DNA of 64,000 nucleotides from a virus (lineage: Duplodnaviria > Heunggongvirae > Uroviricota > Caudoviricetes), in IMG/VR virus record IMGVR_UViG_3300028048_000105. One strand, written 5' to 3'. Both the position numbers and the translations under genes were made by a program. Shown piece after piece: positions 5,304 to 34,722 of the stretch (positions are counted from its first letter, which is position 1; each line of letters begins with the position of its first letter). The notes beneath the pieces were generated by a model. That model was not told the origin of the DNA and did not search any database. It saw nothing but the letters and a program-made list of their open reading frames with translations.

Positions 5304-6947
5304 TTAAAATTCATCCGACAGATCAAAATCCTCGATATCATCCATAACCGGGCTCTCTTCTATATCCGGCTCTTCTTTTACCGGTCTGTTAATGTCATAG
5401 TCTGGATCATCGTTGAACCGGCTGCCGTAATCACCGTTACCATAGTCGACATCCTGCTCGCGGTCCTCAATCGTAATGTCTGCACGACCCTCATCGACCG
5501 CAGGTACTTCCATTTCATACATCTGTGAAGTAAGGGAAACGGAAGAAAGATCCGTGCGGACTTTATCAACAAATCCCTGCATGTTTGAAGAATCCATCTC
5601 GATATTATTGGTTAATGCCGTCACGGTGTTATCGCTGTCATTCGTGATATTCAAAATTCCAACTTCTTCCATCACACGATAACGCCCGGCTTCAATAATC
5701 CCGGCCATATATGAAGAATTTCCATTGTATTCCATCAACGAATCATTTTCCATGTTTCTGATTTCCATATATGGCTTCCGCTTTGAGTCCGGCTCCATAT
5801 GAAGCTTCAAATCCCCGTTTTCAAAAAGATGTTCCATGTAGTCTTTCTGGATCCCGTTCATCTGCTCAATTATAGATAAAGATACATACGGCTTTGCAAG
5901 TTCTCTTAATGAAAATTCCTGTATTCTTCCTTCTGTCGAAGCGGGACAGACATAGAAATGGAATGTATCCTGCAGCTCTTTGACACATTCCGGATTTGCA
6001 AAATTCAGTTCTTTTTCAATCGCCTGATTCTTATATACGATCGCTCCTCCCGTTCTGAGGACAATATAATTTTCCGGATGTGCGGAGTCATAAATCGTAA
6101 TGCCTTTTACTTTTTCGCCGTCCATGATCCGGCTAATCGGTTCGAACGCTTTCATATTGACAGCCTGAACCTGCTCCATCGCTTTGTAAAGCTTTGTTGT
6201 CTTCTGTAAAGCTACAACCCCGACCGCTTCATTGAAGATTTTTTCTTTTTCCGGAGAACCAATATCTTTTTCTGACACAAGGAAAAGGTTCTTGTTCGGG
6301 TCTTCCCTGATCCGGGAAGCAATTCCTTTTTCAGCGAGAATAAGCTGGACCTGTTGCATCTGTGGATAAGAAAGATTTTCCATCTGACGGACAAAGCTAT
6401 CATTCATGAGATCATTTGCCTTGTCTGCATCCATGAATAAGGACTGGCTTTCAAATTTTGCTGCGATATCCATGATCTGTTCCATGTTGTCGCCGGATAC
6501 CATATAGATCGAAGTGTAATCTTGTGCATGAACCGGCATCATGACGAATGGCATATGACCTGCCGCCATTTCCCTTTCAAAATTGAAGCAGTCCCTGTTG
6601 TCCAACTGTACGAATCCGATCGAGTCACCATATTTCTCAACCCAGTATTTATCGGCTTCTTTAATTGCAAGATCTTCCGCTTCTACAACGGACAACCCTG
6701 TCTCCCTCTGAATCTCATCCTGCTTGTCCTGTTTGAACGTTTCCACATCCATGCTCTGTTTCGCCAGTTTGTCCAGCAGGTCTTTATTTGCCATCTCTGC
6801 TTCCTGCAAAAGCATAGATAACTTCTGCACCATTGTTAAATGTCTTAAAAGTGTATCGACTGATCCTGTAACTGTCCCGACAATCACGCTTGCCATTGGA
6901 TCAAGAGTTTTTATTGTGTTGTTCACCACTTTGTTTGCTTCTTCCAT
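5304..6947 (-). CDS. hypothetical protein with acidic C-terminal tail
   Basis: 547 aa ORF; no motif recognised; D/E-rich C-terminus. Confidence 0.5.
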   Translation of the reverse strand: MEEANKVVNNTIKTLDPMASVIVGTVTGSVDTLLRHLTMVQKLSMLLQEAEMANKDLLDKLAKQSMDVETFKQDKQDEIQRETGLSVVEAEDLAIKEADKYWVEKYGDSIGFVQLDNRDCFNFEREMAAGHMPFVMMPVHAQDYTSIYMVSGDNMEQIMDIAAKFESQSLFMDADKANDLMNDSFVRQMENLSYPQMQQVQLILAEKGIASRIREDPNKNLFLVSEKDIGSPEKEKIFNEAVGVVALQKTTKLYKAMEQVQAVNMKAFEPISRIMDGEKVKGITIYDSAHPENYIVLRTGGAIVYKNQAIEKELNFANPECVKELQDTFHFYVCPASTEGRIQEFSLRELAKPYVSLSIIEQMNGIQKDYMEHLFENGDLKLHMEPDSKRKPYMEIRNMENDSLMEYNGNSSYMAGIIEAGRYRVMEEVGILNITNDSDNTVTALTNNIEMDSSNMQGFVDKVRTDLSSVSLTSQMYEMEVPAVDEGRADITIEDREQDVDYGNGDYGSRFNDDPDYDINRPVKEEPDIEESPVMDDIEDFDLSDEF

Positions 6948-7032
6948 CTGTCATTCCTCCTGTAATTTTCTCCGGATATCCGGATAACAACAATATGTAT
7001 TATTATTTCTTCCGCTTGACCAGTCTGCCACA

Positions 7033-8088
7033 TCAGGATCTGTCAAGATCTTCCGTAAAATCAAGTTCCTCCCGTCCTGTTTCCTCAAGATTACTTAAAA
7101 GTGAATGCAATTCTTCACGTATCGATTCCCCGTTTTTCTGCAACTCAATCCCTTTTTCGATGCATTTCCTTTTGTAGTCACGTTCCTTGATTTCCCGTTT
7201 TAATCTTTCATTCTCCTCCTGCATCTGCTTAAGAATTTTTCTCTGTTCATTTTTCTCTCTATAAGCATCATCTCTCTGCTTCACCAGCTCTTCTGGAATT
7301 TTATTCTTTTCCTCATTTACAACCGATCCATCACCGCCATCCATAAAATCATCTTCCGCGGTCCGTCCGTCATCAAGGATTATATTTTTCATATATTCCT
7401 GTCTCTGGTTTACTTCCTTCGTAAGCTTCTCTGCATACCGGGAATTCTTTTTCAGATGTTCCGTACTCTGCCGCCTTGGGGTTTCCCCTGTGTTAAATCT
7501 TACGTGGTACTTTTCGTTGCACAGCTTTTCAACTGCCTGGTTCATTTTCAGGATATTGGTCAGGGAAGAGAAATCCTTGTTGCTTAATTTTCCATTTACC
7601 TCCGGAACAACCTGAATGTGAATGTGAGGTCTGGATACTTTAATCATTCCGTCTTTCGCATCCGTGTAAGGAGCGATCTCATCAAAGTGGCTTGTTGCGC
7701 TGATGATATTCTCATCCCCGAATTTTTCCCGGCACATATCGTAAAAATCTTGAAACAACTCCTTTGCTTTTTCATTTGTCATTCCAAGCGGTACCGGCAT
7801 TTCCAGACTTGTCATTTCAATCCGGTCATCCCTTTTGTTTGTATTTGTTGTTCTATCCAGTTCCGCAAGACGTTTTTCCCATTTTTCCCTTGATTCCTTC
7901 CATGACATTCCTGTGAAGTTTTGGTTTTGATATGACTTTGACGGATCAATCTCGATATTGCTGTGCTGCTTTGTTGGATCAGCTCGGAACGTCTGATCAC
8001 AATGTTTTAAAAGATTTACTCCGCGGATATGATCTTTTTTGCTGCATTTTGCACTTCCGTGATTGCCGCCCCAGTTAACTGAAGACAT
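7033..8088 (-). CDS. mob: MobV-family relaxase (plasmid recombination/mobilization protein, Mob_Pre)
   Basis: SHFDE...RPHIHIQVVP..NGKLS motif like pMV158 MobM HxDE/HxH; coiled-coil C-terminus. Confidence 0.75.
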   Translation of the reverse strand: MSSVNWGGNHGSAKCSKKDHIRGVNLLKHCDQTFRADPTKQHSNIEIDPSKSYQNQNFTGMSWKESREKWEKRLAELDRTTNTNKRDDRIEMTSLEMPVPLGMTNEKAKELFQDFYDMCREKFGDENIISATSHFDEIAPYTDAKDGMIKVSRPHIHIQVVPEVNGKLSNKDFSSLTNILKMNQAVEKLCNEKYHVRFNTGETPRRQSTEHLKKNSRYAEKLTKEVNQRQEYMKNIILDDGRTAEDDFMDGGDGSVVNEEKNKIPEELVKQRDDAYREKNEQRKILKQMQEENERLKREIKERDYKRKCIEKGIELQKNGESIREELHSLLSNLEETGREELDFTEDLDRS

Positions 8089-8179
8089 ATTTTATTCTCC
8101 CTCCTTACCCCTGCAACCACAATATGAAATAAAAAAAAGTTTGCGACAGGACTTTGGCAAAGTATTAGGTGCTATAGGA

Positions 8180-8800
8180 CTTTGCCCCCAGTACTTTCTT
8201 GCTTTCTCGCCTTCTTGCTTTCCTCCCAATCCTCCACCCACACCTCTCATCTGCCATCTGCTCCACGGAACCCTGTTTCCACATCATCCTTCCTTTCTCA
8301 CATCTCACCCCACATTTATCCCCTCTTTTCTTCCACGAAGTCTTTCTTGCGCTCTTGCGTTTTCACGTTTTTACGTTTTAACACTCTTGCACTCTTGTGT
8401 TCACTCTGCCCGCGCTCCGCCCAGTACTTCCTGCACAATAAGTCCGCGCTAACCTCACACTGCACCACAGTCCACTTACCCGCGCTCAGTTATAAAACCA
8501 CCGTACATAAGTCCGCGCCCACACCACTCCACGCATCAAGAAGTTTATGGAACTATCCTCCACTTTCCCCCCTATATTTCCATCTTTTTCCCCACCTCTA
8601 TACATTTTCACACCGTACAGATAAAGTATTCCCTCCACTTTGGCATATTTCTCGCATTCTTGCATTCTCGCGTTCTGCCTGCAATCCACGCCCTCACACC
8701 TCACATCTGCTACCCACACTACAGGTTCCCTGCCCGCATTTTTTTCTTGCATTCTCGCGTTGTTCCCTTGTGCTGTACTCACGCTCTGTACGCCATGCAT
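8180..8800 (+). repeat. Polypyrimidine (C/T-rich) tract with short TCTTGC / CTTGCATTCTCGCGTT repeats
   Basis: Plus strand is almost purine-free over about 600 bp; repeated CTTGCATTCTCGCGTT at about 8655, 8740, 8960, 9365. Confidence 0.6.
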
Positions 8801-8819
8801 CGCGCTACGGAAACATACC

Positions 8820-10085
8820 ACCTTAGTGATACTATTTTACACATTCCAAGGTGGTTTCCCAGTACCATCCCTGATCTTCCTATGTCCTCCTGTATTTCCG
8901 GTACCAGTAACGGTATCACCTTACGGATACTAAATGATACCACCTTGGTGATACTATTTCTTGCATTCTTGCATTCTTGTGTTCTCGCGCCCCACACGTT
9001 TTGTCCGTACTGTCTTCTTGCACGTCCTTATGAACTTTTACGGTATTCTTTCTTACCTTTCCCTTTTCCTTCCCGCATTCACCCTTCTGCGGCGCCACAC
9101 AAGCACATTTGTACTGTATATGCGCCGCAAAGCATCAGTGTCTGTAGTATCATAAAGCGGTCTGGCCGGCTCTGCCCGGAATAAAAGCACCAGATGACCG
9201 CCGGGATACCCTGCTTCTTCCTTGTCTCTCCCACGTACTCCACACGTTTTCTCTGTCCTCTACCATGTATCATATCAGTAAGGTGATACTTTTGTTTTCT
9301 TTTTACTTCCCATCCCCTCCCCCTTATGTTCAAGGTGTATCCCTGTTTTGTCCTGTTATTCCTGCTTTCTCGCGTTCTTGCGGTAAGATTTGTATCAGTA
9401 AGGTGATACTACATAGTACCAACAAGATGATACAAAATGGATTGCCACGGTCGTTTCTGTATTCAGTACCATAAAGGTGATACTATTTAGTATCAGTAAG
9501 TTGATACTTTTGAACATAAAAAATACTCCCACCATCCCCTGCCTACCGCTTCCTATACTTATTTCACAGGCTTGCGCGGAACCAGGCGCGGAACCAGGGA
9601 GAAAATGGGAAAGAAAAAGAATACCATACGGGTGATACTACTTAGTATCAATAAGGTGATACTGTTTAATATCAGCAAGTTGATACGAAAGTGACAGGAT
9701 CTGTATGTTTTCATTTATTTAGTATCATACGTGTGATACTATATAGTACCAATAAGGTGATACTATCTAATACCACAAAGGTGATACTATTTGGACAGAT
9801 TTGTAAAGGAACAGTAGTATCACCCGGTTTTCTTGTATTTCCTATGCTTCTTCCCCAACCCTTACGGTATTTGCCTAACCCCCTCGAATTCGATGGGTTT
9901 AAAATAGTATCACTGAAAAATAGTATCAGTAGCAATCTGTCTTTATCCGGATATTTCCTTATCGGTATGTGGGAGCTGGTTTACTGAAACTATTTTTGAG
10001 ATGATACTATTTTCTGTTCTTCTAGTGATGCCATTTTTGTTGTTTTTCTTTACTCCGGCCTGCTTTACTGATACTATTTTCCACC
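8820..10085. repeat. Iteron array: about 20 copies of GGTGATACTA(T) in both orientations (candidate replication origin / Rep-binding region)
   Basis: Copies at about 8826, 8946, 9283, 9401, 9425, 9471, 9495, 9641, 9664, 9690, 9738, 9762, 9786, 9820, 9905, 9925, 9997, 10066; many form TAGTATCA..TGATACTA inverted pairs. Confidence 0.6.
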
Positions 10086-10191
10086 GAAAGGCTGCTCTCC
10101 TGCTGTACTCTTCTGGGGCTTTGGAAAGCTGGTATTGGAAAATTCTGCGTTGTTTTCTTAACAGAAGGGTTTTCTGTACGGAAGCTGGTTT

Positions 10192-10221
10192 CTAACTGAT
10201 CTGCACGCGAAGACGCGGCAG
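10192..10221 (+). repeat. IS200/IS605-type subterminal hairpin (LE), CTAACTGATCTGCACGCGAAGACGCGGCAG
   Basis: Imperfect palindrome CTGCACGCG-AAGA-CGCGGCAG; identical copy at 13284-13312 and inverted copy at 12652-12681. Confidence 0.55.
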
Positions 10222-10338
10222 AGGAAAGCGCCACCTACACCTACACTTCTTTTTATATCCATACATTCATTTCTTAAATATTTATAAATTCCCATTTTTA
10301 TAGTTTATAAACAATAGATTCAGTAGTATAATTCTATT

Positions 10339-10761
10339 ATGGAAAATAAAAGAGAAAACAATAAAAGTTATGAATATCATTCATCATCCCATTTAAAATA
10401 TTTATGCCGTTATCATGTGATCTTCTGTCCGAAATACAGAAGAAAGATCTTAGTTAATGGTATTGACGAACGGCTGAAAGAAGTGTTTACAGAAACAGCC
10501 AAAGAACACGACTTCAGCATCATAGAGATGGAAGTCATGCCGGATCATGTACATCTGCTTATTGACTGCAACCCCAGATATGGGATCATGCAGTGTATTA
10601 CAGACCTCAAGTATGGATCTGCACATGTACTCGGGCGGGAATTCCCGTCCATCCGGAAAAAGATCCCTTCCATTTGGACACGCAGCTGTTTTGTAGCAAC
10701 CGTAGGAAGTGTTTCCTTTGATGTTGTAAAACAGTACATAGAATCACAGAAAGGAAAATAA
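10339..10761 (+). CDS. tnpA: IS200/IS605 family transposase TnpA (Y1 HUH)
   Basis: HVHLLIDCNPRYG HuH motif; 140 aa; typical N-terminal YHV..P KYRR. Confidence 0.85.
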   Translation: MENKRENNKSYEYHSSSHLKYLCRYHVIFCPKYRRKILVNGIDERLKEVFTETAKEHDFSIIEMEVMPDHVHLLIDCNPRYGIMQCITDLKYGSAHVLGREFPSIRKKIPSIWTRSCFVATVGSVSFDVVKQYIESQKGK

Positions 10762-10764
10762 ACC

Positions 10765-12321
10765 ATGCCGAGTTACTGTCTCGAATTAAAGTTAAAAGTG
10801 AAGAAAGACTCCGACAGGAATTACCTACAGAACTACTTTAATGCGGTGGCAAAGCTCGGTAATGAAATACGCAGGTTCGCAATCAGACAACTCGGGCATC
10901 TGAAACAGGACAGGAACTACAATTCCCTGCTTGCGGAGTACGTAAAAGTCAAAGGGGACGAAGATTCCCCGGAGCGCGAACGTCTGTCAAAAGAACTGTC
11001 TGTCATCGTAGGTTCCTACGGGCTTACAAAGTACGGACTTCAGAAATCAGCCTGTGAAATGCGTAAACATCTGAAATACGTGCATTCTGATGTTTACCAG
11101 AAACTCAGTGACAGTATCTGGCGAAGCGTAGAGAAATACCTTTACGGCAACGGAAAACAGATCCACTTCAAGAAGTGGGATGATGTCATGAGTTTTGAAA
11201 ACAAGAAGAACTCCACCGGCATCATTTATGCGGATGGAAAGGTATACATCAACTGTACGCCAAAGAGACCCAAATGCGGGATTGCCCTTGACATCATCCT
11301 CCCGCGCAACAAAGAATCCGCCCACTACATGTATGAAACCACATGTCTTACTGACAGGACGAAATACTGCCGGATCGTAAGGAAGATGTTTCCATCCGGA
11401 TGGCGGTATTACGTACAGCTGGTACAGGAAGGGATTCCTCCGCAGAAACATGAGATCGGGAAAGGGCGCGTCGGTATTGATATCGGTACATCCACAATCG
11501 CTGCGGTATCAAAAGATGGCTGCATCCTCGAAGAACTTGGGGAGCCTGCTTCCTCTCCTGCTGAAGAATGCCTGCTCCAGCGGAAGCTTGACCGGAGCCG
11601 CCGTTCTATGAATCCGAACAATTACAAGGAGGATGGCTCCGTAAAGAAAGGCAAAAAGACCTGGAAGAAATCAAAAACTTACCAGGCTGTCCAGAACCGG
11701 CTGAAATCCCTCCGGAGACAGAAGGCTGCCCGCCTGAAACAATGGCAGGAAGCCGAAGCGAATAAGATCGCCGCAATGGGAAACAAGGTCTTTGTGGAAA
11801 CGATGGATTTTAAAGCTTTGCAGAAGCGTGCAAAAAATACCGAGCGACAGGAACAAACGTCCCTTGTAAAACAGAAGGATGGAACGGAAAAGGAAGTACA
11901 TAAATACAGGAAGAAGAAACGATTTGGCAGTTCCATCGGAATGCATGCCCCCGCTCAGTTCTTATCCATACTGGAACGGAAGCTGGCATACCACAAAGGC
12001 GGGCTTTGCAGAATCAATACCTGGAAATTCAAAGCCAGCCAATACAACCATGTGGATGACACCTATGAGAAGAAGAAGCTCTCAAAACGTTACAACACCA
12101 TAGACGGCCGGTGGGTGCAGCGTGACCTCTATAGTGCATTCCTGCTGATGTGTTCGGATGATACACTTGAACACGCAGACCGGAAACGGTGTACCAGAAA
12201 CTATAAACGTTTCCTTAAAAACCACGATGCCTGCATCAATGAAATCCTCGCAGATATCCAAAAGAACCAAAAGAAAGTCCCATCCTGTTTCGGAATCAAT
12301 GCAAAAATGGCTGCCCTCTAG
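10765..12321 (+). CDS. tnpB: TnpB-like RuvC nuclease (IS605 OrfB family) apparently lacking the zinc-finger
   Basis: RuvC-I GIDIGTSTIAAV, RuvC-II VFVETMDF, RuvC-III-like WVQRDLYSAFLL; no CxxC pairs between II and III; 518 aa. Confidence 0.65.
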   Translation: MPSYCLELKLKVKKDSDRNYLQNYFNAVAKLGNEIRRFAIRQLGHLKQDRNYNSLLAEYVKVKGDEDSPERERLSKELSVIVGSYGLTKYGLQKSACEMRKHLKYVHSDVYQKLSDSIWRSVEKYLYGNGKQIHFKKWDDVMSFENKKNSTGIIYADGKVYINCTPKRPKCGIALDIILPRNKESAHYMYETTCLTDRTKYCRIVRKMFPSGWRYYVQLVQEGIPPQKHEIGKGRVGIDIGTSTIAAVSKDGCILEELGEPASSPAEECLLQRKLDRSRRSMNPNNYKEDGSVKKGKKTWKKSKTYQAVQNRLKSLRRQKAARLKQWQEAEANKIAAMGNKVFVETMDFKALQKRAKNTERQEQTSLVKQKDGTEKEVHKYRKKKRFGSSIGMHAPAQFLSILERKLAYHKGGLCRINTWKFKASQYNHVDDTYEKKKLSKRYNTIDGRWVQRDLYSAFLLMCSDDTLEHADRKRCTRNYKRFLKNHDACINEILADIQKNQKKVPSCFGINAKMAAL

Positions 12322-12700
12322 GACAGCCATAGATACAAATGTAACTTTAAACAAACACTGATATAACCTTATAAATATAGATATACGGGATCAAACTGAG
12401 TCCCTGGGCCGCATCCTGAGCTGAGTACACAGCTGTTCTCCTGATGCATAAACCGCTTTGCCGGGAGGCCCTGAAAGTTAATCCCTTCTGTAGTACGCAG
12501 GAGTGGCTGCAGCAGCAACACCGCTGTGGAGATCATCCATAAGACTACAACAAAAAGTGCGTATCGTCATCATAGGCTGACGGAGGTTCCCAAAGGGAAA
12601 ATCCAGATGTCCGGCGTACGTTTCTCAAGTGATGTCTTCTGGACCTTAAACCTGCCGCGTCTTCGCGTGCAGATCAGTTAGCTCGAAACAAAGTCATCAC
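12322..12700 (+). ncRNA. Candidate TnpB ωRNA / structured right-end region
   Basis: GC-rich, no credible ORF, ends in inverted copy of the 30-bp hairpin (12652-12681); position 3' of tnpB as expected for ωRNA. Confidence 0.3.
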
Positions 12701-13430
12701 GCAAAGTAGTATCACTTCCTGGGACGGGACTGCGTTTTTTTGGGAAACAGTACTACTAAAACAGTACCACCCGCACGAAGCAGGAAACAGAGTAAAGAGC
12801 GGAGGCAAAAAGTATGGCAGGCAGCGGGGCAGAAACCCATAGGAAAATTGGGCGGAAAGTAAGAAAAACAGGATACGCGCCCCGTGCCCCGCGCCAGACG
12901 GCTTCAAAAATCGTACCACCCGCGCTTCCATTCTGTACAATTTCCCGCACAGGAAACTATGAAAGAAGCCGTGCGGCGCACAACAAAAAACCGTGGATCT
13001 GTAATTTTTATGAGAAAATGGAGGAAAATTTATATTTGATATGGATGGCAGTGAAGTCTCACACAACCAAGGTTGCGTGCTTCCATACCCGTTTTTCTGG
13101 GGCATGGACTCGCTGACTGAAGATACAGTGAACTGCGGACATCCGGTTCCCGGATGCGTTTTCGTGGAAGCTGAGGCAGAAGCTGGTAAACAGAAGCGAA
13201 GCACCATTGGATACCACAACACCTGATGCGCAACCGCGTGGTTGCATTCCCAATGTCGGGTCCACCCGATCAGGCATCCATCGCTAACTGATCTGCACGC
13301 GAAGACGCGGCATCTTCCAGCTTAGTTTTTCGTGACAAAAAGGGCGCAGCTCCGGCCGTGTCTTTTTTTGTTCCATATTAAAGATGTAAATAAAGATGTA
13401 AATAAAAACATATCTGAAAGGAGAAAATGC

Positions 13431-13628
13431 ATGATTACGAAAGAATATATGACATCTGTTGAAGAATTAAAAGAGGAATTCAAAATTGGTTCCGTGGTCG
13501 AACAAGACGGGAAACTTCTTAAAGTCGTGGAGATTAATAACGCTCTGCCAACAACCTGTTTTGCATCTTTCCCAAGCGTGACATTCGAAGAAGTGCAAAA
13601 AGTTTCCCAGTCTGGCACCACCAGGTAA
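13431..13628 (+). CDS. hypothetical small protein (module B upstream)
   Basis: CATATTAAAGATGTAAAT(x2)..GAAAGGAGAAAATGC ATG. Confidence 0.4.
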   Translation: MITKEYMTSVEELKEEFKIGSVVEQDGKLLKVVEINNALPTTCFASFPSVTFEEVQKVSQSGTTR

Positions 13629-13747
13629 TCCGGATAAAATCCATCACACTTACAAAATGAACTTATGGCACAGCTTTGGCTGTGTCTTTTTTTTGTTTCA
13701 TATTGAAGATGTAAACCGATTTTTTAAACATCGAAAGGAGAAAAACC

Positions 13748-14590
13748 ATGAAATACGCAAGATATGATATTATCCTCCAGGAAAAGGAAGTAAACGAGGA
13801 TCTTTTAATCAGAATTGACAACAGCGAGGCATCCGGTGCGATCCCGCTTGAGCTGCCGTCACATGACCGAAAGGAAAAAGTTTCCGGTTACATGAACTTT
13901 CAGGGAGCGAAAGCTCTCGGATACAACCTGTCAAACAAGGAGCTGCTTGACAAGCTGAGTTTTCTCATCTTCAACACCCGCTCCGATTCCAGGTGCAGCT
14001 CGTATGACGAATACGAGCTGGGAGATCTTAAGGTGCTGGTATTCCGCCATATGGATCCAGAGGAAATTCCGGAAGATATGAGGGCAACAGACTCTGTATC
14101 TGAGATTTTCCCGAACTGCATCTGGCACAAGTTCCCAGATGGGTCCGGGTATCTTGATGGACCACGGAAAGGCCAAAAGCTTATCCAAGGTTACGACCTC
14201 TCTACTAACGAATTCAAGTATCGCGGAAACTGGTACTTTTTCGCTGACACTGACTCTGGACACTATATTACCTGCCAGGAGGCGATCAGCCAGATGGAAG
14301 TCCTCTTGTATAAAACACCAGATACTTTCGTCCGGCTTTACATCAACTGGTATGGCTCCTGCAACGAGTATGCACTTGAAGCAGAAGCGGAAACCGGAGA
14401 AAATGCAGGTGCGCTTGCCCTCCAGAAATTCCTCGAAACCGCAAAGGAAGAGGAACTGGTTGGATACATGCTCTATTCAACAGGCGGCCGTCAGGATGAG
14501 ATGTTTGATTTCCTGATGACCGGGCTCCCTGGGGTATCCGGGAAGAAGAAGGAAAATATCAGAAAAATTATGGAGAAAATGTACGCTTAA
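13748..14590 (+). CDS. hypothetical protein (module B upstream)
   Basis: 280 aa ORF; TTTCATATTGAAGATGTAAAC..ATCGAAAGGAGAAAAACC ATG. Confidence 0.55.
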   Translation: MKYARYDIILQEKEVNEDLLIRIDNSEASGAIPLELPSHDRKEKVSGYMNFQGAKALGYNLSNKELLDKLSFLIFNTRSDSRCSSYDEYELGDLKVLVFRHMDPEEIPEDMRATDSVSEIFPNCIWHKFPDGSGYLDGPRKGQKLIQGYDLSTNEFKYRGNWYFFADTDSGHYITCQEAISQMEVLLYKTPDTFVRLYINWYGSCNEYALEAEAETGENAGALALQKFLETAKEEELVGYMLYSTGGRQDEMFDFLMTGLPGVSGKKKENIRKIMEKMYA

Positions 14591-14668: not shown

Positions 14669-14757
14669 TCCATCCATGCGCCTCATAAGGCGCAACAAGC
14701 CGGTAGCATCCGCAGCCTGATTGCATTTTAACCCATACATCCCATAAGGGATGCAAC
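14669..14757 (-). CRISPR. Satellite mini-array: 2 repeats (degenerate TTTCCATCCATGCGCCTCATAAGGCGCAAC and TTTTAACCCATACATCCCATAAGGGATGCAAC) + 28-nt spacer
   Basis: Same family and orientation as the main array at 21722-22148; hairpin stems GCGCC/GGCGC and CATCCC/GGGATG. Confidence 0.5.
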
Positions 14758-21721: not shown

Positions 21722-22148
21722 AATCCATATACCCCTCGCGGGGCGCGACTACCTTCCCCGAAGGTATGGATTTGTCACAATTTTTTCAACCCATGCACCC
21801 ATAAGGGATGCAACGTTTTACCATGGAGAAGATACAAAGGGCAGCAGTGATTTCAACCCATACATCCCATAAGGGATGTAACGAGTAACTCAAAAATGTT
21901 ATGATCATATTAAAAATATTTCAACCCATACATCCCATAAGGGATGTAACGAGGAGTACAAAAAACGCTCGATGCGGTATTCTCTATTTCAACCCATACA
22001 CCCCTTGTGGGGTGCAACTCGCGCTGTTTATGGATCTGCCACAGGAATTTCAACCCCTGTACCCCTCGTGGGGGTACAACGTGAAAAATATGGTGTTCCT
22101 CATTTTATATATTTGTTTCAACCCATGCGCCCCTCCACGGGGCGCCAC
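21722..22148 (-). CRISPR. CRISPR array, 7 repeats (one degenerate), type I-C-like repeat (minus strand GTTGCATCCCTTATGGGATGTATGGGTTGAAA)
   Basis: Repeats at 21722-21750 (degenerate), 21784-21814, 21851-21882, 21919-21950, 21987-22018, 22048-22080, 22116-22148; spacers 29-36 nt; repeat stems differ by compensatory changes. Confidence 0.8.
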
Positions 22149-22397: not shown

Positions 22398-23309
22398 TTA
22401 AATCATGCGCGTCATCGTCACACCGCCCGGGATTGCATCCTCATGGATCTTTACGGTGTAATCAGAGTATTTGCGAGGAAACTCGACATCATCGTTCTTC
22501 TTGACATCAACTGCTTCAAATAGCTTGTAGGAAGGACAGTTGCCGAGTTCGCTGTCATGCCTGAATACAATCAGCTCACGTACCGCCATCTTCCCGCGTG
22601 CTGCGGAATGGTCATTTTCAAACATATTGATGATGGCTTTCCAGAGAAGATCCAGATCATCTTCGGAAAAACCGGTGGTCTTGCGGGCAAGGTTGGCAGA
22701 AACATATCCTTCCACGCGGTAGAGACCATAAGGGATAATGCTCTTTCTTCCCATCTCGGTGTTCTTCTTTTCCGCATCCTTTTCAGTTGTGATCGCAACT
22801 CTGGTTACGGTAATATCCTGGCTGAAAACAGGATCAATACTTTTTGCAAAGCCAATCTGTACCGGGCCGCGTACCTGTCCACAGTTTAATGCCGCCTTTG
22901 TAAAAGTGGTCATAACAGCACCGAATGTACGGATATCGTAGTAGTTGCTGCACATATAGTCACGGAGCTTAAGGTCTACGTTCTCATCGGTCTTTTTCAG
23001 TTTCTTGACATCCTCAAGTGCCTTCTTACTGTCATCAACATCAACACCAAGGTTTTCGATTGCCTTAAGATCGCTGCGGTTCAACGGAATACCCTCTTTG
23101 ATGTAGATCTTGAAACCGTCTGCATCCTCCTTTGCGGTTTCCACATAGTTGCGGATCTTTCGCTTTAAGCAGGCGTCTGTCACAAGACCGATGCCGGTCT
23201 CTGGATCAACCCTTGGCATGTTTGCGGCATCCGGATCGCCGTTTGGGTTTCCATTCTCTACGTCAAATAATACTACAAAATCATATCTGTTCTGAATCGG
23301 TTTGCTCAT
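22398..23309 (-). CDS. cas7: Cas7 (Csd2), type I-C
   Basis: MSKPIQNRYDFVVLFDVENGNPNGDPDA..VDPETGIGLVTDACLKRKIRNY is the Csd2 N-terminal signature; GGAGG RBS; ORF-track start 23468 is an upstream extension. Confidence 0.85.
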   Translation of the reverse strand: MSKPIQNRYDFVVLFDVENGNPNGDPDAANMPRVDPETGIGLVTDACLKRKIRNYVETAKEDADGFKIYIKEGIPLNRSDLKAIENLGVDVDDSKKALEDVKKLKKTDENVDLKLRDYMCSNYYDIRTFGAVMTTFTKAALNCGQVRGPVQIGFAKSIDPVFSQDITVTRVAITTEKDAEKKNTEMGRKSIIPYGLYRVEGYVSANLARKTTGFSEDDLDLLWKAIINMFENDHSAARGKMAVRELIVFRHDSELGNCPSYKLFEAVDVKKNDDVEFPRKYSDYTVKIHEDAIPGGVTMTRMI

Positions 23310-23310
23310 A

Positions 23311-25050
23311 TTAGTTTTCCTCCATCTTCTCTGCATTTGTCTGGTTGCTTTCAGGATCGCTGTCTTTTGACTTATTGCTTGTATATTCTGCCTGCATCTG
23401 GTGGTAATAACCAAGTGCGAATTTGCCCTGATCCTCATACGTGAAACGCTTCGGGAACCCCGGATCATCCGCTGTAACCGGAATCAGGCCCATCAAACTT
23501 TGGATCTTAGCCGCAAAATAATATCCTTTGCCCGGCTTTGTGCGTTTCAGCTTGCTTAAATGGCTGTTGGACAGTCTGATCAGCACCGGAAATACCGATC
23601 CTGGCGTTGTGCATGCGGAATTGTAAAACTTGTCACAGATCGTCTGGTTGATGTTATCAATTGCTTCCTTCTGTGTCCTTTCCATTACTGCAAACAGTCT
23701 GCCGAGGATATACGCACGGTCTCTGCAGTCTTCGTTTAATACTTCCATATTTTTTCCTTCCTCCCATTTATAGTTCTTTATTAAAAAAGCCTTGATGACC
23801 GCTGCTTTTCTGTAAGTAACGCCTTTGTGCTCGGCACGGATGCGGGACAGCACTCCTGCATACAGGCTCTGCGGATACTTGGTATCCGAAATGACCGACT
23901 GTAACGTCATCGCAGCCATATGCGGAACCGGGGTCCTGTCTGTAAGGTTCTGGTTTACCGTCTCCATAAGCATCTGCCAGATATTGATGAATTCCTGATC
24001 CTCAAACACCGGCTTTATGATCATCATCCGGCTGGCATGTTCCAACAGGTTCTTCCAGATCACTCCGATGGCATCTTCATAGAAGAACCGGACTGCAATT
24101 CTGCCGGCATTCGGTGCAAGACAGAGCACGTACAGTTTTTCATCCGGATCTGCAAGGACATGATCTTTTTCATTGGCGCTCCCCATCATCTTCCGCAGTC
24201 TGCTTACATCATCCACATCCCCGGAATCCGTCCAGAAGACCACCATGGAATCTCCTACCTTGCTGTGGTACCCGTCCGTGGAAAGCAGGTAATTTAATGC
24301 TGTCACATATGCATACGCCACATAGGTGCTGATCGGCGCGTTATAACTTTGTGTTTTCTCATAAGACTCAAGGGACGCGCCGTTAAAGGATACAAGCGCC
24401 GCACCGGATGACTGTGTTCCCGGCACTCCTTTGACCTTCCCATGTGTGCGGGCAATCTCTGCTTCCTTCCCGGTAACCAGGCATCTTCCTGTTACCATTT
24501 CATATGGTACGCTGCTGTAATCCAGCCATGCTCTGCGCACGGTCTCATTGTCATGCACATATTTGCCGTCTACCTCAAATACGAGGTTCCCGCCTTTATA
24601 AAACTTTTCCGCAAGCTTCGCAACTGCCGGGTGATCCAGTGCCTGTTCCGGATCCCATGAACGGAAAAAGCGGCACACTGCCTGTGCTGCCGACTCATCC
24701 ACGACATCAAGGATATCAAGATGTTTCTTCCTTGCTGCTTTAAAACAGTCCAGCGTACGCGGGCTCATCTTCTCATCAATTCCAAAGAGATACTTTGCAT
24801 TTTCGCAGAGAAAGCCGGAAGCAATGTTGTTACCCCGGGTGACCATCTCTGGAACCTGCATAACTGTCGGGATTTCAACAGTCTTTTTCCCTCTCTGTAT
24901 CTCCCGCTTTACGGAAACAATATCCTGGATTATCCCATCGTGGTTTAACACCACCGCATAGGATACCTTTGCATTGCACCAGCCGGGACGGGATACTTTC
25001 CCCTGGTCTGCAAGCGTTTCATATAATTTTACAAGTGACTGCAGGATCAT
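23311..25050 (-). CDS. cas8c: Cas8c (Csd1), type I-C large subunit
   Basis: MILQSLVKLYETLA N-terminus and 579 aa size match Csd1. Confidence 0.85.
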   Translation of the reverse strand: MILQSLVKLYETLADQGKVSRPGWCNAKVSYAVVLNHDGIIQDIVSVKREIQRGKKTVEIPTVMQVPEMVTRGNNIASGFLCENAKYLFGIDEKMSPRTLDCFKAARKKHLDILDVVDESAAQAVCRFFRSWDPEQALDHPAVAKLAEKFYKGGNLVFEVDGKYVHDNETVRRAWLDYSSVPYEMVTGRCLVTGKEAEIARTHGKVKGVPGTQSSGAALVSFNGASLESYEKTQSYNAPISTYVAYAYVTALNYLLSTDGYHSKVGDSMVVFWTDSGDVDDVSRLRKMMGSANEKDHVLADPDEKLYVLCLAPNAGRIAVRFFYEDAIGVIWKNLLEHASRMMIIKPVFEDQEFINIWQMLMETVNQNLTDRTPVPHMAAMTLQSVISDTKYPQSLYAGVLSRIRAEHKGVTYRKAAVIKAFLIKNYKWEEGKNMEVLNEDCRDRAYILGRLFAVMERTQKEAIDNINQTICDKFYNSACTTPGSVFPVLIRLSNSHLSKLKRTKPGKGYYFAAKIQSLMGLIPVTADDPGFPKRFTYEDQGKFALGYYHQMQAEYTSNKSKDSDPESNQTNAEKMEEN

Positions 25051-25706
25051 CGAAACACCTCACTGTTCCCGACATCAATGATGCCATTTTTCATAACTGC
25101 ATGGTAATACATTGGCTGGATATCTCTTCCGCAGGAATAATCCAGGTCATAAAGCATCAGCCCGAAATCCCTGTCCGGAAGTCCTTCATGGCAGGATGCG
25201 ATCTTTTCATCCCCCTCGCAGAGTTTAAAGTGCGCGGGGAATTCCCTTACCCCGAAATACGGCATCGAATAGCACGCCCCTTTTCTTGCCCTGTTATTAA
25301 AGATGCTGATAAATTTCGCCGGGCTGTCCGTCGGGCTCGCCTTGTCCGTCATTTCAAAATGTGCTTCAATCACGTAGCTGACATCACGGAGGATCACGGA
25401 TGCCCTCTGGATAATATCGTCTCTTGACGAATTATACAGCTTGACATCGCCGCCGTTATATGCCTGTAACATATTTGATTTCGGTATCTTGCTGAGAAGT
25501 TCATTCCTTCTTACGCTTGTAGTGGCAATCGGATTTAATACGTGGATTTTATCTACGTACCACCGTAATCCCGGATGCCAGTAGATGGATTCCAGAATCC
25601 CCCTAGCTGCCGACGGAGTCATCACATCATAGGTATACCGTTCTGTTTTCAGTTCCGGTCTAGTGAACAATGCATAATCTCCCCAGACTTTCAGTTTCAC
25701 TCCCAT
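25047..25706 (-). CDS. cas5: Cas5d (Cas5c) endoribonuclease, type I-C
   Basis: MGVKLKVWGDYALFTRPELKTERYTYDVMTPSAARGILESIYWHP; module A promoter at 25806-25838. Confidence 0.8.
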   Translation of the reverse strand: MGVKLKVWGDYALFTRPELKTERYTYDVMTPSAARGILESIYWHPGLRWYVDKIHVLNPIATTSVRRNELLSKIPKSNMLQAYNGGDVKLYNSSRDDIIQRASVILRDVSYVIEAHFEMTDKASPTDSPAKFISIFNNRARKGACYSMPYFGVREFPAHFKLCEGDEKIASCHEGLPDRDFGLMLYDLDYSCGRDIQPMYYHAVMKNGIIDVGNSEVFR

Positions 25707-25926
25707 TCTTCTTTTTCCATTCCTTTTCATCATCATCCATACATCCGAAGATGCAACTTCTGTAATTTCTGTTATCCGGCAAGACATACATCCTGCCCTT
25801 TCAATACACATATTGCGCCATTTAAAAAATCGTCAAAAGATTTTGAAAACTTTTTCAAAAAAAATTGCAAAAAACTGCAGCCAGTTAAACTGACTGCAGT
25901 TTTTTGCGATCTTAAAAATCAATATG

Positions 25927-29265: not shown

Positions 29266-29677
29266 AATTGATTAAAATGAAAGGAAAAGAAAACCATGTT
29301 AAAGATAATGAGTTGTAAAAATTTTAATAATGATTATAGAACATATGGCGATTTCAGCAATATGTTTACTTTCTCATGCTCAAAATCAGGAAAAACATGG
29401 GGACAGAACGATTACTATACACCTTCCCGCAGTCGATTTCGATTTTAAACCAGGCACTTAAAACCGAAATATTGCAAAGCGCAGATGGCCGCGGAGAGAA
29501 GAAATTTCTTGATGCGGCTTTTTTATTGTTGAAAAAGTCATGGACAGGTAGCTGAGATGGATTAGCGAGGGACTGAAAATCCTTACAGGGTGGATCATTA
29601 CCACTCCTGTCCACTCCGCAGCGATGCGGTAAAAAACTGAATGGATAAGAGAAAACAGGCACTTCTTTTATCCGTAT

Positions 29678-29749
29678 GCATGTGAAGTGTTGTTGGCGGC
29701 ACACCTGCCTTCCAAGCAGGACGGGCGGGTTCGAGACCCGTCACATGCT
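29678..29749 (+). tRNA. tRNA-Gly (anticodon TCC)
   Basis: Manual fold: acceptor GCATGTG/CACATGC, anticodon loop CTTCCAA, T-arm GCGGG-TTCGAGA-CCCGT. Confidence 0.65.
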
Positions 29750-29750
29750 C

Positions 29751-29822
29751 TGATCCGTAGCTCAATGGTAGAGCACCCGGCTGTTAACCGGGGCGTTGAG
29801 GGTTCGAGTCCCTCCGGATCAG
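29751..29822 (+). tRNA. tRNA-Asn (GTT)
   Basis: acceptor TGATCCG/CGGATCA, D-arm TAGCTCAATGGTAGAGC, anticodon loop CTGTTAA, T-loop TTCGAGT. Confidence 0.75.
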
Positions 29823-29827
29823 CTCAT

Positions 29828-29909
29828 GCGTTGGTAGTCCAGCGGCGAAGACAGCTGACTGTAAATCAGCCACAAAGAAACACCGGAGGTTCGAGTCCTC
29901 CCCAGCGCA
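29828..29909 (+). tRNA. tRNA-Tyr (GTA), long variable arm
   Basis: anticodon loop CTGTAAA, long variable arm, T-arm GGAGG-TTCGAGT-CCTCC. Confidence 0.7.
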
Positions 29910-29913
29910 CTAT

Positions 29914-29986
29914 ACTTCCGAGGACAAACAGCAGAGTCACCGCCCTGTCACGGCGGAGATAGCGGGGTCAGCACCCGTCGGAAGTG
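29914..29986 (+). tRNA. noncanonical tRNA-like, anticodon GTC (Asp); possible pseudogene
   Basis: Good acceptor (ACTTCCG/CGGAAGT) and anticodon arm (CCGCC-CTGTCAC-GGCGG) but D-loop lacks GG and T-loop is GTCAGCA. Confidence 0.4.
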
Positions 29987-29991
29987 TTCCT

Positions 29992-30064
29992 GCTCCTGTA
30001 GCACAACTGGCAGTGCATCTGATTTGTAATCAGAAGGTTTCCGGTTCGAAGCCGGACGGGAGCT
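29992..30064 (+). tRNA. tRNA-Thr (TGT)
   Basis: anticodon loop TTTGTAA, T-arm TCCGG-TTCGAAG-CCGGA, acceptor GCTCCTG/CGGGAGC (one G-U). Confidence 0.7.
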
Positions 30065-30068
30065 TTAT

Positions 30069-30140
30069 GGATCTGTAGTATAAAGGCTATTACACCCGGC
30101 TGTCTACCGGAAAACGAGGGTTCGATTCCCTCCTGATCCG
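30069..30140 (+). tRNA. tRNA-like, anticodon GTC (Asp) with several stem mismatches
   Basis: canonical T-arm GAGGG-TTCGATT-CCCTC; acceptor with one mismatch; anticodon loop CTGTCTA. Confidence 0.45.
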
Positions 30141-30145
30141 CTCAT

Positions 30146-30219
30146 GTGCCTGTAGCTCAGTTGGCAGAGCACGCGACTTTTAATCGCGGTGGCGTCGGGT
30201 TCAAGTCCCACCAGGCACA
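30146..30219 (+). tRNA. tRNA-Lys (TTT)
   Basis: D-arm TAGCTCAGTTGGCAGAGCA, anticodon loop CTTTTAA, acceptor GTGCCTG/CAGGCAC. Confidence 0.7.
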
Positions 30220-30462
30220 CTAAATATTGAAAAATTCAAGGAAAGGAAGGAAAAACAATGATGACAACAGAAATGAGACAGTGTCCACAGAGAAGTATCA
30301 GTCAGCCGCAGTCATGCAGCTGGCGCAGTTGTCGTGCTCGTAAATACCGTCTCAAATTGAAAGAAATGTGGTCATTGCCTGGGAATTTCTGGGAAAATGT
30401 TGGAAATACTTAAGAAAACGGGGCATACATCTTTCGATTGAGAGGTGTGTGCCTTTATTTTT

Positions 30463-30545
30463 GCTGTACTGGCTCAACCGGAAAAGCAGCGGTCTTAAAA
30501 CCGCCATTCCGAAAGGATATTAGGGTTCGAATCCCTGGCACAGCG
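30463..30545 (+). tRNA. tRNA-Leu (TAA), class II
   Basis: anticodon loop CTTAAAA, long variable arm, T-arm TAGGG-TTCGAAT-CCCTG. Confidence 0.65.
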
Positions 30546-30576
30546 CTCTCCTCCCTTATCAGGGGAACCCATATAT

Positions 30577-30648
30577 GGCATCATAGCCAAACGGCTAAGG
30601 CGTCCGGTTGCAACCCGGAAGGTGAGGGTTCGATTCCCTCCGATGCCT
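30577..30648 (+). tRNA. tRNA-Cys (GCA)
   Basis: anticodon loop TTGCAAC, T-arm GAGGG-TTCGATT-CCCTC. Confidence 0.65.
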
Positions 30649-30653
30649 CTTAT

Positions 30654-30743
30654 GCAGACATATAAAGGTAACTGGTACCCCTCCACACTGCTAATGTGGC
30701 ATGCGGCACAACCGCTGTCCGGGTTCGAACCCCGGTGTCTGCG
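30654..30743 (+). tRNA. tRNA-Ser (GCT), long variable arm
   Basis: acceptor GCAGACA/TGTCTGC, anticodon loop CTGCTAA, T-arm CCGGG-TTCGAAC-CCCGG. Confidence 0.7.
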
Positions 30744-30749
30744 CTATAT

Positions 30750-30817
30750 ACACCTGTCTGATGGACAGAAAGTGGTCTCCAAAACCGCCAACGAGGGTTC
30801 GATTCCTTCCGGGTGTG
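30750..30817 (+). tRNA. noncanonical tRNA-like, anticodon CCA (Trp), shortened D-arm
   Basis: anticodon loop CTCCAAA, T-arm GAGGG-TTCGATT-CCTTC; only 68 nt. Confidence 0.4.
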
Positions 30818-30902
30818 CTCCTTTGTTCTCTTTGCTCACGGGCACGAATCGTGTGGGCGACGCCAGACTTTTCTGTAATTTCATTTAAAAAAGGGATATC
30901 CG

Positions 30903-33188: not shown

Positions 33189-34722
33189 CTACGCAACAAA
33201 TACAAGCCCCTCGTTGTGTCTTATGATCCGGCATTTCTTTGCCGGGTAGTTTGTTTTCTTATCACCATACACACGAAGATACTGACCGTTTGACAACTGC
33301 CCGGACAATACATGGTATTCACCCATGTATTCGAACAGGGCACCAGGCATCAGACGGTCCGGATTGTTGTAACGTCTTGTGCTCTTCTCAACGGTCAGCT
33401 GCGACCGCATCCGGTCTGCCTCTTTCCGGCCATGACATTTAACCTGTTCTTCATACCAGCCGGAAAGTGACGGGCACTTTTGTTCAAACCGCGGTCTGCG
33501 GTTCTTTGCAATGATCTTTCCATTGAGTCTGTATGTCCTCTCCCTCTGGTTATTGATAATTGCACGGTCATGTCTCCGGAACTGTACGATTTTATGTACA
33601 TAGGTAAACCCCGGGGCTGCCGCCGGTATCAAACCGGCACCAAGGCAGGCAATGCAGAAAGCATCTGCTTCGTGCATTTGGTTATCCTTTGTCTTTTCAT
33701 AGCCAAGGGACTGTCTTGCCATGGAAGTATCCCTGCCTGTGCAGGCATTCAGGTGTTCCGTGTCGACATGTTCTGAAAGGCTGCTCCAAATATACGGGAT
33801 TGCCTGGTTTAACACACTTAAGGCACCGTACTTTTTCAGGATACCGGCTTTCAGTTTCTCAAGCCGTGCTTTTGCATCAGGACTGGTATGTACCTTTCCG
33901 TGACAGCATTCACACAGCCCGGCGATGTTCTTTAAGGTATTGGAGCCGCCCTGTGACCGTGGCACGATATGATGGAAATGTCCGATATCGTTTCCACACA
34001 GAAGACATTTGCCGTGCTGCTGGTCATAAACTGCAGCATTGACATCCCCGTAGCCTTTCAGCGGTCCGTTCTGGAAATCAATGCCGGAAGTTTCCGGATC
34101 ATCCATTAATGCAAATGCAAAACGGTTGACTTCCAATGTCACATCCGTGACCGGAAGAAACTTCTGGATTTTTTTAATCACGTTAACATGGGTTTTCACA
34201 AGCTGTCCTGCGCTCGGGGTGAGCCATCCGGCTTCCCTTACCCGGTTGCAGAACCGTGCCTGTGTATTCCGGATAATCCTGCATGTGACGAACTTATCTG
34301 CAGCGTACTGTGGAAGTTTCCGCATGACCATGCCGGCTTTCAGCATGGTGCCAAAACGTCTGGCAAGCCGTTGGCGTGCCTTGCGTTCGCCATTGCGTGA
34401 CGCCCGGCGGTGTGCCCGGCGCTCATCGACCAGCTTTTTGATGTCCTTGTTGCGGGTTTCCACAACTGCCGAGAATACAGGTTCCGCATTTTCGTTGACC
34501 ACGCTTACGCCGATGTTGGTGCGTCCCGGGTCAATGCCTGCCATAAGTGGCTGCAGAACCGGCTCATTCTCATAAAGCAGCTGTATGGTGTAAGGAATGC
34601 GGCAGGCAATCCTTGCCTTACCAGCATCAAGCAGCTTTTTGATATATCTTTTCCTTTTTGTCGGCATCTGCGGTTTCCCGTCCCTGCCAAGCACATATAT
34701 GTAGTCTGTATCCGGCATGTGA
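33189..34722 (-). CDS. iscB: IscB (OMEGA RuvC-HNH RNA-guided nuclease)
   Basis: PLMP-like N-term, RuvC-I GIDPGRTNIGVSV, Arg-rich bridge helix, HNH CLLCG..HHIVPRSQGG..N..LCECCH; start at M-PDTDYIYVL with AAGGAGGG RBS (ORF-track 34919 start is an extension through the ωRNA). Confidence 0.85.

Follow-up and report, generated by a model that had tools for sequence, protein, structure and literature searches.

Arrays of redundant binding sites placed beside an origin of transfer (oriT) or a rep gene have parallels in several replicons, among them stbDR with StbA in R388, the TAGTARRR 8-bp iterons with RepC in pAD1, sopC in F and FR in EBV; a partition site is, as a rule, found next to its par operon. 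The locus considered here, a long non-coding region next to the relaxase gene mob, combines a predicted oriT with repeat arrays, and it lies in a window of 64,000 nucleotides (the whole stretch of DNA that was analysed) from the IMG/VR record IMGVR_UViG_3300028048_000105, filed under the Caudoviricetes. With regard to transfer, the closest described system is the minimal oriT of pMV158, in which a hairpin is followed 8 nt later by the nick, within AAGtaTAGTGTG/TT, and then by a direct repeat of the hairpin arm (PMC5863519). With regard to the element as a whole, a 2026 preprint describes the Hodor conjugative megaplasmids of the human gut, with a mean size of 357 kb, a G+C content of 44.6–47.1% and over 9000 samples in which they were detected; a degraded array accompanies their type I-C system, TnpB elements are frequent in them, and they had previously been classed as huge phages (PMC12934698). 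No canonical relaxase is reported for them, the oriT being put by an HD (MOBH-like) gene and the vegetative origin (oriV) in an AT-rich gap that precedes Rep_3, and the preprint makes no mention of iterons, of MobV or of the region described below (PMC12934698).

In the window, this non-coding region spans 8089–10221, between mob (7033–8088, − strand) and an IS200-type tnpA (10339–10761); once the insertion sequence (IS) at 10222–12681 is taken out, the non-coding block extends to about 13430 and measures about 2.9 kb in all. It is made of three parts, which are, in order, a MOBV-type oriT, a G-poor tract with tandem 8-mers, and iteron arrays. The interpretation that we favour, if only tentatively, is that an oriT is fused here to a redundancy-tolerant binding array, centromere-like or devoted to copy control, and that the region is not a minimal Rep origin. 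On this view, the principal hub of cis-acting functions on the element, an extrachromosomal, megaplasmid-like replicon of ~350 kb from gut Clostridia, would be located here; the DNA read (the 64-kb window plus flanks of at most 10 kb) covers about 80 kb of it. A preliminary description, made from the letters of the window alone, had thought of the origin of a plasmid or of an integrative mobilisable element; an element of ~350 kb takes the place of a small plasmid or an integrative mobilisable element as the host. Sister elements at graded distance, with Mob identities from 87 down to 50% (L052, L057, L059, L062 and L054), were found by searching cluster representatives for Mob relatives, and their contigs were then compared; in all five, the order and strand of the module (nick motif, then 8-mers, then iterons) are kept.

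The mob-side end carries a near-palindrome which, by sequence and by analogy, is part of a genuine MOBV oriT of the pMV158 type. The core of this predicted oriT (8148–8186, +) comprises direct repeats, a hairpin, a conserved motif and the predicted nick. The direct repeats AGGACTTTG (8148–8156 and 8176–8184, +) set an arm repeat on both sides of the predicted nick, and the hairpin ACTTTGgCAAAGT (8151–8163, +), which coincides with the near-palindrome ACTTTGGCAAAGT already noticed upstream of mob in the preliminary description, is separated from it by 8 nt. The sequence after the hairpin reads ATTAGGTG/CTATAG, so that, following the pMV158 rule of hairpin plus 8 nt, the nick is placed between G8171 and C8172 on the + strand. 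This falls within 8090–8200, the stretch singled out in the preliminary description for a nick-site check, and inside the conserved motif AAGTATTAGGTGC (8160–8172, +), which matches the motif of distant Mob relatives at 13 of 13 positions. Fifteen such relatives, from genomes of Lachnospiraceae, Ruminococcus and other Clostridia, have an upstream hairpin followed by (A/C)TTRRRTGCAAKAC, and their stems differ yet stay complementary, that is, they co-vary. In a DNA fold the nick region is predicted to fall in a loop. Conservation of the oriT core reaches 99.4–99.9% among 14 close loci, and the stretch is nearly fully conserved in the sister with 81% coding identity. In all six members of this element family, the nick motif and the mob coding sequence occupy opposite strands, whereas in pMV158 and in 15 of 16 distant relatives they share a strand; if the analogy holds, cleavage would therefore fall on the + strand, and the repeat field, not mob, would leave first. 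We know of no described MOBV arrangement in which the oriT points away from the relaxase gene and is followed by a gene-free, strand-biased repeat leader.

The relaxase itself (351 aa) is recognised by Pfam Mob_Pre with 49 bits (gathering score 25.5) and matches the PDB structure of MobM, 4lvi, with an E of 3.7e-5; against NCBIfam MobV (NF041497) it reaches 42.6 bits, under the curated equivalog cutoff of 100. The residues H29, R35, H134-x-D-E (D136, E137) and PHxH (H155, H157) are invariant in our alignment A1, and on its sequence Mob belongs to a divergent clade of MOBV relaxases. A tblastn search of Mob against PLSDB gave no match at 1e-10, and tblastn searches of plasmids and phages with Mob and with the 547-aa protein encoded directly downstream of it returned nothing.

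Behind the oriT, a G-poor, pyrimidine-rich tract with a marked strand bias occupies 8190–9400 (+), with a GC skew of −0.43 to −0.60 over 8100–8800 and with 28–35% purines and 10–15% G over 8089–9088. The preliminary description had seen here a polypyrimidine tract of 600 bp; the strand asymmetry is real, and the length is nearer 1.2 kb. The bias has the same polarity relative to the nick motif in L052, L057, L059 and L062. Embedded in the tract are what had been called TCTTGC-type repeats, which are borne out as tandem TTCTYGCR 8-mers: the dimer pattern has 12 matches in the window, 11 of them in 8196–9382 and all on the + strand, against 0.6 expected, and the other 58.7 kb of the window has none. 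These 8-mers are strictly one-way (strand counts 7:0, 4:0, 5:0 and 7:0). On the + strand of the window they form clusters at 8196–8219, 8344–8397 (TTCTTGCG CTCTTGCG, then CACTCTTG twice), 8649–8672, 8744–8770 (with a terminal TTGTTCCC, whose ending is conserved in the sisters), 8958–8989 (four units, most relatives having lost one 8-bp unit) and 9359–9382. A third short motif, RNCCGCGCT, is present within the tract at 8405–8530 (+), as ATAAGTCCGCGC twice and as CCCGCGCTC, and recurs in the G-poor tracts of L052, L057 and L054. Two long open reading frames (ORFs) on the + strand, 8182–8826 and 8660–9184, were considered as genes and rejected, their translations being of low complexity and their starts lacking ATG; long ORFs on this C/T-rich strand are artefacts, because a strand poor in A and G is depleted in stop codons.

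The third part is the iteron field, for which about 20 iterons had been announced. If at most one mismatch is allowed, GGTGATACTA has 16 copies in the window where 2.1 are expected (none of 100 shuffles attains this count), and 13 of them lie in 8825–10009; the 8-mer core TGATACTA occurs exactly 19 times against 1.6 expected, with 17 copies in 8827–10076; and the 9-mer GTGATACTA, with at most two mismatches, gives 32 half-sites in 8826–10076. Thirteen direct 22-nt units have the form TAGTAYCA-N5-GTGATACTA, their strong arm being always on the + strand, and about 10 lone half-sites exist besides. Two units of the ATACCACCTT(A/G)GTGATACTA type, which is the dominant type in L059 and L062, come first (8814–8835 and 8936–8957, +), with degenerate half-sites in between (8814–8957). 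The main field follows at 9271–9790 (+), with 11 22-nt units starting at 9271, 9391, 9415, 9465, 9489, 9620, 9644, 9668, 9721, 9745 and 9769, and with a tandem period of 24 bp within clusters (9460–9508, 9631–9686 and 9733–9790). Solitary half-sites of the form (G/C)TGATACTATTTT then span 9815–10076 in both orientations, at 9815, 9905 and 9921 on the − strand and at 10001 and 10068 on the + strand, the block 10060–10090 being near-identical in L052. Over the rest of the 64 kb iterons are found at chance level only; as far as 64 of ~350 kb shows, they are not a dispersed REP/MITE-like family, which disposes, within the window, of the widespread intergenic repeat that the preliminary description had named as the finding that would speak against its view.

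The head-to-head pairs described earlier are correct for this window. In distant sisters the units take the form ATACCGCCTTAGTGATAY or GATACCRCCAAGRTGATAC, and the ATACCGCCTTAGTGATAC units are not self-complementary; the unit is therefore an asymmetric iteron of ~20 bp, and the near-palindromic pairing is a local variant of this window. Across the sisters the period is 24, 25–48, 30 or 34–35 bp. Since the strong arm of the iteron is constant and the weak arm varies without compensation, the arms do not co-vary, which argues for protein binding to duplex DNA. A role as hairpin single-strand origins (Frpo-like) was considered and rejected, given the uncompensated arms and the distant units that are not self-complementary. 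The iterons probably represent double-strand binding-type sites for a sequence-specific protein encoded away from the module.

Non-coding DNA evolves about five times faster than the flanking genes, with many insertions and deletions; in L052, the 87% sister, which is on a 354-kb contig, coding DNA is 81–83.5% identical to the window and non-coding DNA 52%. Within this non-coding DNA, identity is 0.705 at half-sites and 0.76 at 8-mers versus 0.459 elsewhere (Fisher p 1e-14 and 2e-9, respectively), and among the 14 close loci half-sites are conserved at 0.953 and the remaining positions at 0.920 (p 1e-6). Sequence comparison thus shows the iterons to be under purifying selection, and the 8-mers to be under selection as well. 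The number of half-sites is variable: close strains that are 98–100% identical in the flanking genes carry 19–33 half-sites and differ by the gain or loss of whole units of 24, 12 or 8 bp. The pair of mob and its partner of ~500–570 aa is always kept; the genes past the opposite end of the module differ from sister to sister. In L054, the 50% sister, the whole module lies 6 kb from mob, and the strict pattern finds over 20 units in it, against about 35 counted by eye; being intact at this distance, it behaves as one block. In the same element, the intact nick motif stands with the repeat module (L054:9880–10000), and a copy beside mob (L054:3800–3884) lacks GGTGC (CAAAGTATTA-TATAGGAC), a scar such as would be expected from relaxase-mediated recombination at the nick site.

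In the array model that we tentatively prefer, the mob-side end is, by comparison, a MOBV-type origin of transfer as in pMV158; cleavage would fall on the + strand, which would leave in the 5′ to 3′ direction with the repeat field rather than mob as its leading end; behind the predicted nick are two independently selected repeat systems, the one-orientation 8-mers and the asymmetric direct iterons of ~20–22 bp; these iterons would be bound as duplex by a protein that the element encodes away from the module; and the outcome would be a redundant loading platform beside the oriT, presumably a centromere-like, positioning or copy-control (handcuffing or titration) array. An array for loading many protein copies is favoured because the sites are many, loosely spaced and variable in number between near-identical strains, and a copy-number-tolerant array of binding sites is indeed what a partition centromere would have. 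Several points weigh against this model. The par operon that should adjoin such a centromere is missing: ParA, ParM, TubZ, ParB, HTH and RHH families, hence any centromere-binding protein or motor gene of these kinds, were found neither in the ~60 ORFs of the window nor beside the module in the five sisters, the search for a cognate gene having covered ~80 kb of the ~350-kb element. Rep-type iterons are classically recognised by direct asymmetric repeats of 22 bp, such as those found here. The conserved strand bias and the one-way 8-mers suggest a function of single-stranded DNA or RNA, which an array bound purely as duplex leaves unexplained. Finally, the position of the nick and the identity of the nicked strand are predictions made by analogy.

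The Rep-type signature is at the core of an alternative in which the region would be an iteron-type oriV or a copy-control locus, its 22-bp repeats being bound by monomers of a Rep from elsewhere on the element (for instance the Rep_3 of Hodor); with Rep acting in trans, the DNA could be opened here, or the region could be a second, handcuffing iteron cluster. Tandem direct repeats of 17–22 bp, as an iteron origin requires, are present; more precisely, direct asymmetric repeats of ~20–22 bp, set in twos and threes of one orientation and with distant extra clusters, are shared with Rep_3, RepE and pi origins, and an oriT beside an oriV is common in mobilisable plasmids. The other features of such an origin are lacking, however. 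As the preliminary description had remarked, there is no adjacent rep gene, and the search for Rep families came out empty both in the ~60 window ORFs and in the module-flanking ORFs of the five sisters; the 280-aa neighbour was tried as the Rep_3 of the Hodor preprint, and a limit as loose as E 10 yields no Rep_3 signal for it. The window has no more DnaA boxes than expected (16 versus 18.8) and the module has none, no AT-rich unwinding element lies beside the iterons, the sole region of ~29% GC belonging to the IS, and there is neither a skew switch nor a switch in gene orientation, cumulative GC skew falling monotonically on both sides of the site and almost all genes being on the − strand either side, so that nothing indicates a bidirectional origin. 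Unlike in Rep_3, RepE and pi-type origins, with their 3–7 copies, the iterons number 13–35, their variable periods (24, 30 and 34–35 bp) are not whole helical turns, and their copy number is polymorphic between strains. The Hodor megaplasmids, which this element resembles, do encode Rep_3, but their putative oriV was placed in a different AT-rich gap, directly upstream of that gene (PMC12934698). A canonical Rep-type origin is thus disfavoured by the missing DnaA boxes and skew switch and by the variable number and spacing of the iterons, and a vegetative origin or copy-control locus served by a distant Rep appears possible but unlikely.

The strand bias and the one-way 8-mers find their only explanation in another, rather unlikely alternative, a device specific to the leading end of transfer, in which the repeats would assemble accessory proteins of the relaxosome, or load or orient a coupling or translocase ATPase, and in which, after entry, the unstructured G-poor T-strand and the repeats downstream of it would serve priming or establishment in the recipient. 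It is in agreement with this that the module stays 3′ of the nick motif even when apart from mob (in L054), that G is depleted on the same strand relative to the nick despite 52% identity, and that the 8-mers are tandem and strictly one-way, recalling KOPS, SRS and the clt TRS of Streptomyces. With these they share the length of 8 bases, the restriction to one strand and the clustering near a transfer locus; they differ from them in being contiguous tandem copies, pyrimidine-rich on the nicked strand, with no FtsK-like gene seen. Nearly all genes to the right, including Lar and methylases, could be transcribed from the strand in question, a pattern of leading-region genes that has been described (PMC11541004), but the same minus-strand bias is found on the mob side and is therefore not specific to a leading region. 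Moreover, 2 kb far exceeds any known relaxosome site, the iteron arms without co-variation make hairpin-type single-strand origins or promoters unlikely, and no type IV secretion system gene was seen in the ~80 kb read. There is also a bolder proposal, which we consider quite unlikely: the module would be a new oriT-linked establishment device of giant Firmicutes plasmids, whose reversed nick site sends a gene-free leader of 2–3 kb first, whose G-depleted strand and one-way 8-mers guide or load a translocase or primase, and whose iterons nucleate a maintenance complex once double-stranded. A regulatory role, in which a master regulator would control the mob-547-recJ operon through the iterons as operators, or these would double as promoters, and the purine-rich − strand would be transcribed as a long leader or non-coding RNA, is improbable. 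Half-sites do look like −35 (TTGATA) and extended −10 (TGATACTAT) elements, sites built from iterons are picked up in the promoter scan, and the skew has the same sign as the minus-strand genes, although it is stronger; against this, promoter-like sites in the promoter and terminator scan are not above chance (11 versus 9.1 in shuffles), Rfam models gave no match in 7900–13800 at E up to 1, a promoter-like motif in common with two other genes stands close to mob itself, more than 25 operators for one operon would be unusual, and the L054 module has a place other than upstream of mob. Lastly, a decaying remnant or a selfish satellite DNA without present function would suit the fivefold faster evolution and the wealth of insertions and deletions; this reading, to which the remnant origin entertained in the preliminary description belongs, is nonetheless highly improbable, since the repeats retain their motifs, order and strand in sisters with as little as 50% Mob identity, between spacers that have become random.

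The insertion that interrupts the region is of the IS200/IS605 type and is no part of the module itself (10222–12681, +). Its tnpA (10339–10761) has a Y1_Tnp domain, in line with the preliminary description, whereas the 518-aa ORF that follows (10765–12321), called tnpB there, has no Pfam match, and the IS sits inside the module region rather than at its boundary. More than 20 metagenome contigs carry an identical Mob protein, most of them without the IS; in L002, L005 and L011–L020, position 10221 is joined to 12682 via 92 bp with one more TAGTATCACC. Such IS-free close relatives make the IS a recent insertion inside the region. A 30-mer hairpin element, CTAACTGATCTGCACGCGAAGACGCGGCAG, is present in three copies, at 10192–10221 (+), 12652–12681 (−) and 13284–13313 (+), the inverted copy being the right end of the insertion; because the IS and a 30-mer copy replace the 92 bp of the IS-free relatives, this was no simple insertion. 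Beyond it, the right arm of the same non-coding region (12682–13430, +) is purine-rich and contains TAGTATCAC at 12707 and two GTACCACCCGC repeats. Inside the repeat field, a G+C-rich hairpin formed by TGCGGCGC and GCGCCGCA (9088–9130, +) has a DNA fold of −11.7 kcal/mol (z −2.55); in L052 and L057 its stem is kept and its loop has diverged. The promoter-like motif of mob, CTTTTTTTTATTTCATATTG (8120–8139, −), lies about 30 nt before the ATG, is 95% complementary to 13686–13705 and is 100% conserved in L052. A common motif, TTTTTTTGTTYCATATTRAAGATGTAAA or a shorter form of it, is found at 8120–8139 (−), 13363–13390 (+) and 13688–13715 (+), about 30–45 nt before the start codons of mob, of a 65-aa gene and of the 280-aa gene, the latter two copies each coming after a terminator-like hairpin; it may be a promoter specific to the element. 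A blastn search of 7000–10330 against phages and plasmids gave no match, and a literature string search with the iteron and oriT sequences returned irrelevant matches only.

The partner of mob, a 547-aa protein (5304–6947, −) encoded directly downstream of mob in all sisters, has an acidic C-terminal tail ending in DFDLSDEF and is 87, 67, 34, 33 and 29% identical to its sister homologs. An invariant block, TI(Y/L/V)DSAHPENY..GGAIVY, runs through these proteins, and the acidic tail is SSB-like. Pfam, PHROG, PDB and NCBIfam contain no match to the protein, the L054 homolog has a weak match to DUF3801 (PcfB-like, E 0.0098), and an AlphaFold2 model from an 8-sequence alignment has a pLDDT of 45 and is unusable. 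Profile and sequence searches of PDB, NCBIfam and PHROG gave nothing for the 280-aa neighbour and other flanking ORFs, and the AlphaFold2 model of the 280-aa neighbour, made from the single sequence, has a pLDDT of 48. An HD-domain protein of ~337 aa recurs near the mob-547-recJ block (L067:14940–15953 and L059:10924–11940); the gene in L067 lies about 5 kb left of the window start and is followed by a tyrosine integrase and RadC, and in one sister the HD-domain gene sits between the 547-aa homolog and recJ. This protein may be the MOBH-like HD nuclease of the Hodor preprint.

As a marker of the element, the 547-aa protein is found on at least 1000 metagenome contigs, of up to 361 kb and with none above 1 Mb; no match to it was present in GTDB species-representative genomes, PLSDB, INPHARED or an IMG/VR subset, IMG/VR scans with this protein, P0122, P0124 and the iteron pattern returned nothing, and a metagenome scan with P0122 returned only relatives of 31–34% identity. 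The gene content of the window includes ten tRNAs, two IscB-like genes, restriction-modification systems, Lar, YopX and many HNH genes. A type I-C cas7-cas8c-cas5 operon (22398–25811) stands beside a degenerating CRISPR array (21780–22140) with a 33-nt repeat, ATTTCAACCCATACATCCCATAAGGGATGTAAC, and a 68-nt period, with no cas3, cas1 or cas2 in view; a solitary copy of the repeat lies 7 kb off, at 14725–14757, just after the 280-aa gene. The IscB-like (RRXRR plus HNH) ORFs, of 576 and 487 aa, are at 33189–34919 and 41654–43117 (both −), and no HEARO-type RNA was found by them at Rfam gathering scores. The ten-tRNA array (29542–30818, +) is the sole sizeable + strand block in 15–64 kb; one of its genes (30463–30546) is given an anomalous two-base anticodon by ARAGORN, yet scores as a tRNA with Rfam. 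Over 14900–64000 near-all genes are on the − strand and the cumulative GC skew declines steadily; with Lar, two orphan-looking methylases, an LPD1 polyvalent-protein domain and a type I restriction-modification system, this stretch resembles the anti-defence leading regions of conjugative plasmids, but genes on the mob side keep to this strand bias too.

The host element is among the commonest large mobile elements of gut metagenomes, and the region offers a concrete predicted nick site together with its relaxase, a high-copy binding-site sequence for protein fishing, and a natural series of diverged sisters. The element may be a Hodor megaplasmid, in which case Rep_3, ParA/B/M, a type IV secretion system and a sortase module would be expected on the same circle of ~350 kb: contigs of ~350 kb, a GC content in the mid-40s, an extreme prevalence in gut metagenomes, type I-C cas genes with a degraded array, frequent TnpB and a past filing among huge phages are shared, traits that are circumstantial. 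Hodor was described from the human gut, and the datasets behind some of the present contigs are, we presume from their names, studies of the pig or ruminant gut. The MobV-type relaxase and oriT differ from the HD-gene oriT of that description; if the identity is true, this pair would be the canonical relaxase system missed in it.

Compared with R388 stbDR, pAD1, sopC and EBV FR, the array shows the same abundance of redundant tandem sites and the same tolerance of copy number, and, as in R388, it occupies an oriT-proximal leading region; it differs from all four in that no gene for a cognate binding protein or a motor stands next to it and that its unit sequences are unrelated. The comparison with pMV158 is closest at the oriT. 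Like MobM, the relaxase has the H..R and HxDE..PHxH signatures; the oriT is directly upstream of mob and overlaps the mob promoter region; the hairpin precedes the (here predicted) nick by 8 nt, in AAAGTATAGTGTG/TT in pMV158 and in AAAGTATTAGGTG/CT here; and a direct repeat of the hairpin arm follows it, ACTTTA in pMV158 and ACTTTG here. Unlike pMV158, the present locus has its nick motif opposite the mob strand, so that the predicted direction of transfer is reversed, its relaxase scores under the NCBIfam MobV cutoff, about 2 kb of repeat arrays follow the oriT, and the replicon that it would serve measures ~350 kb instead of 5.5 kb.

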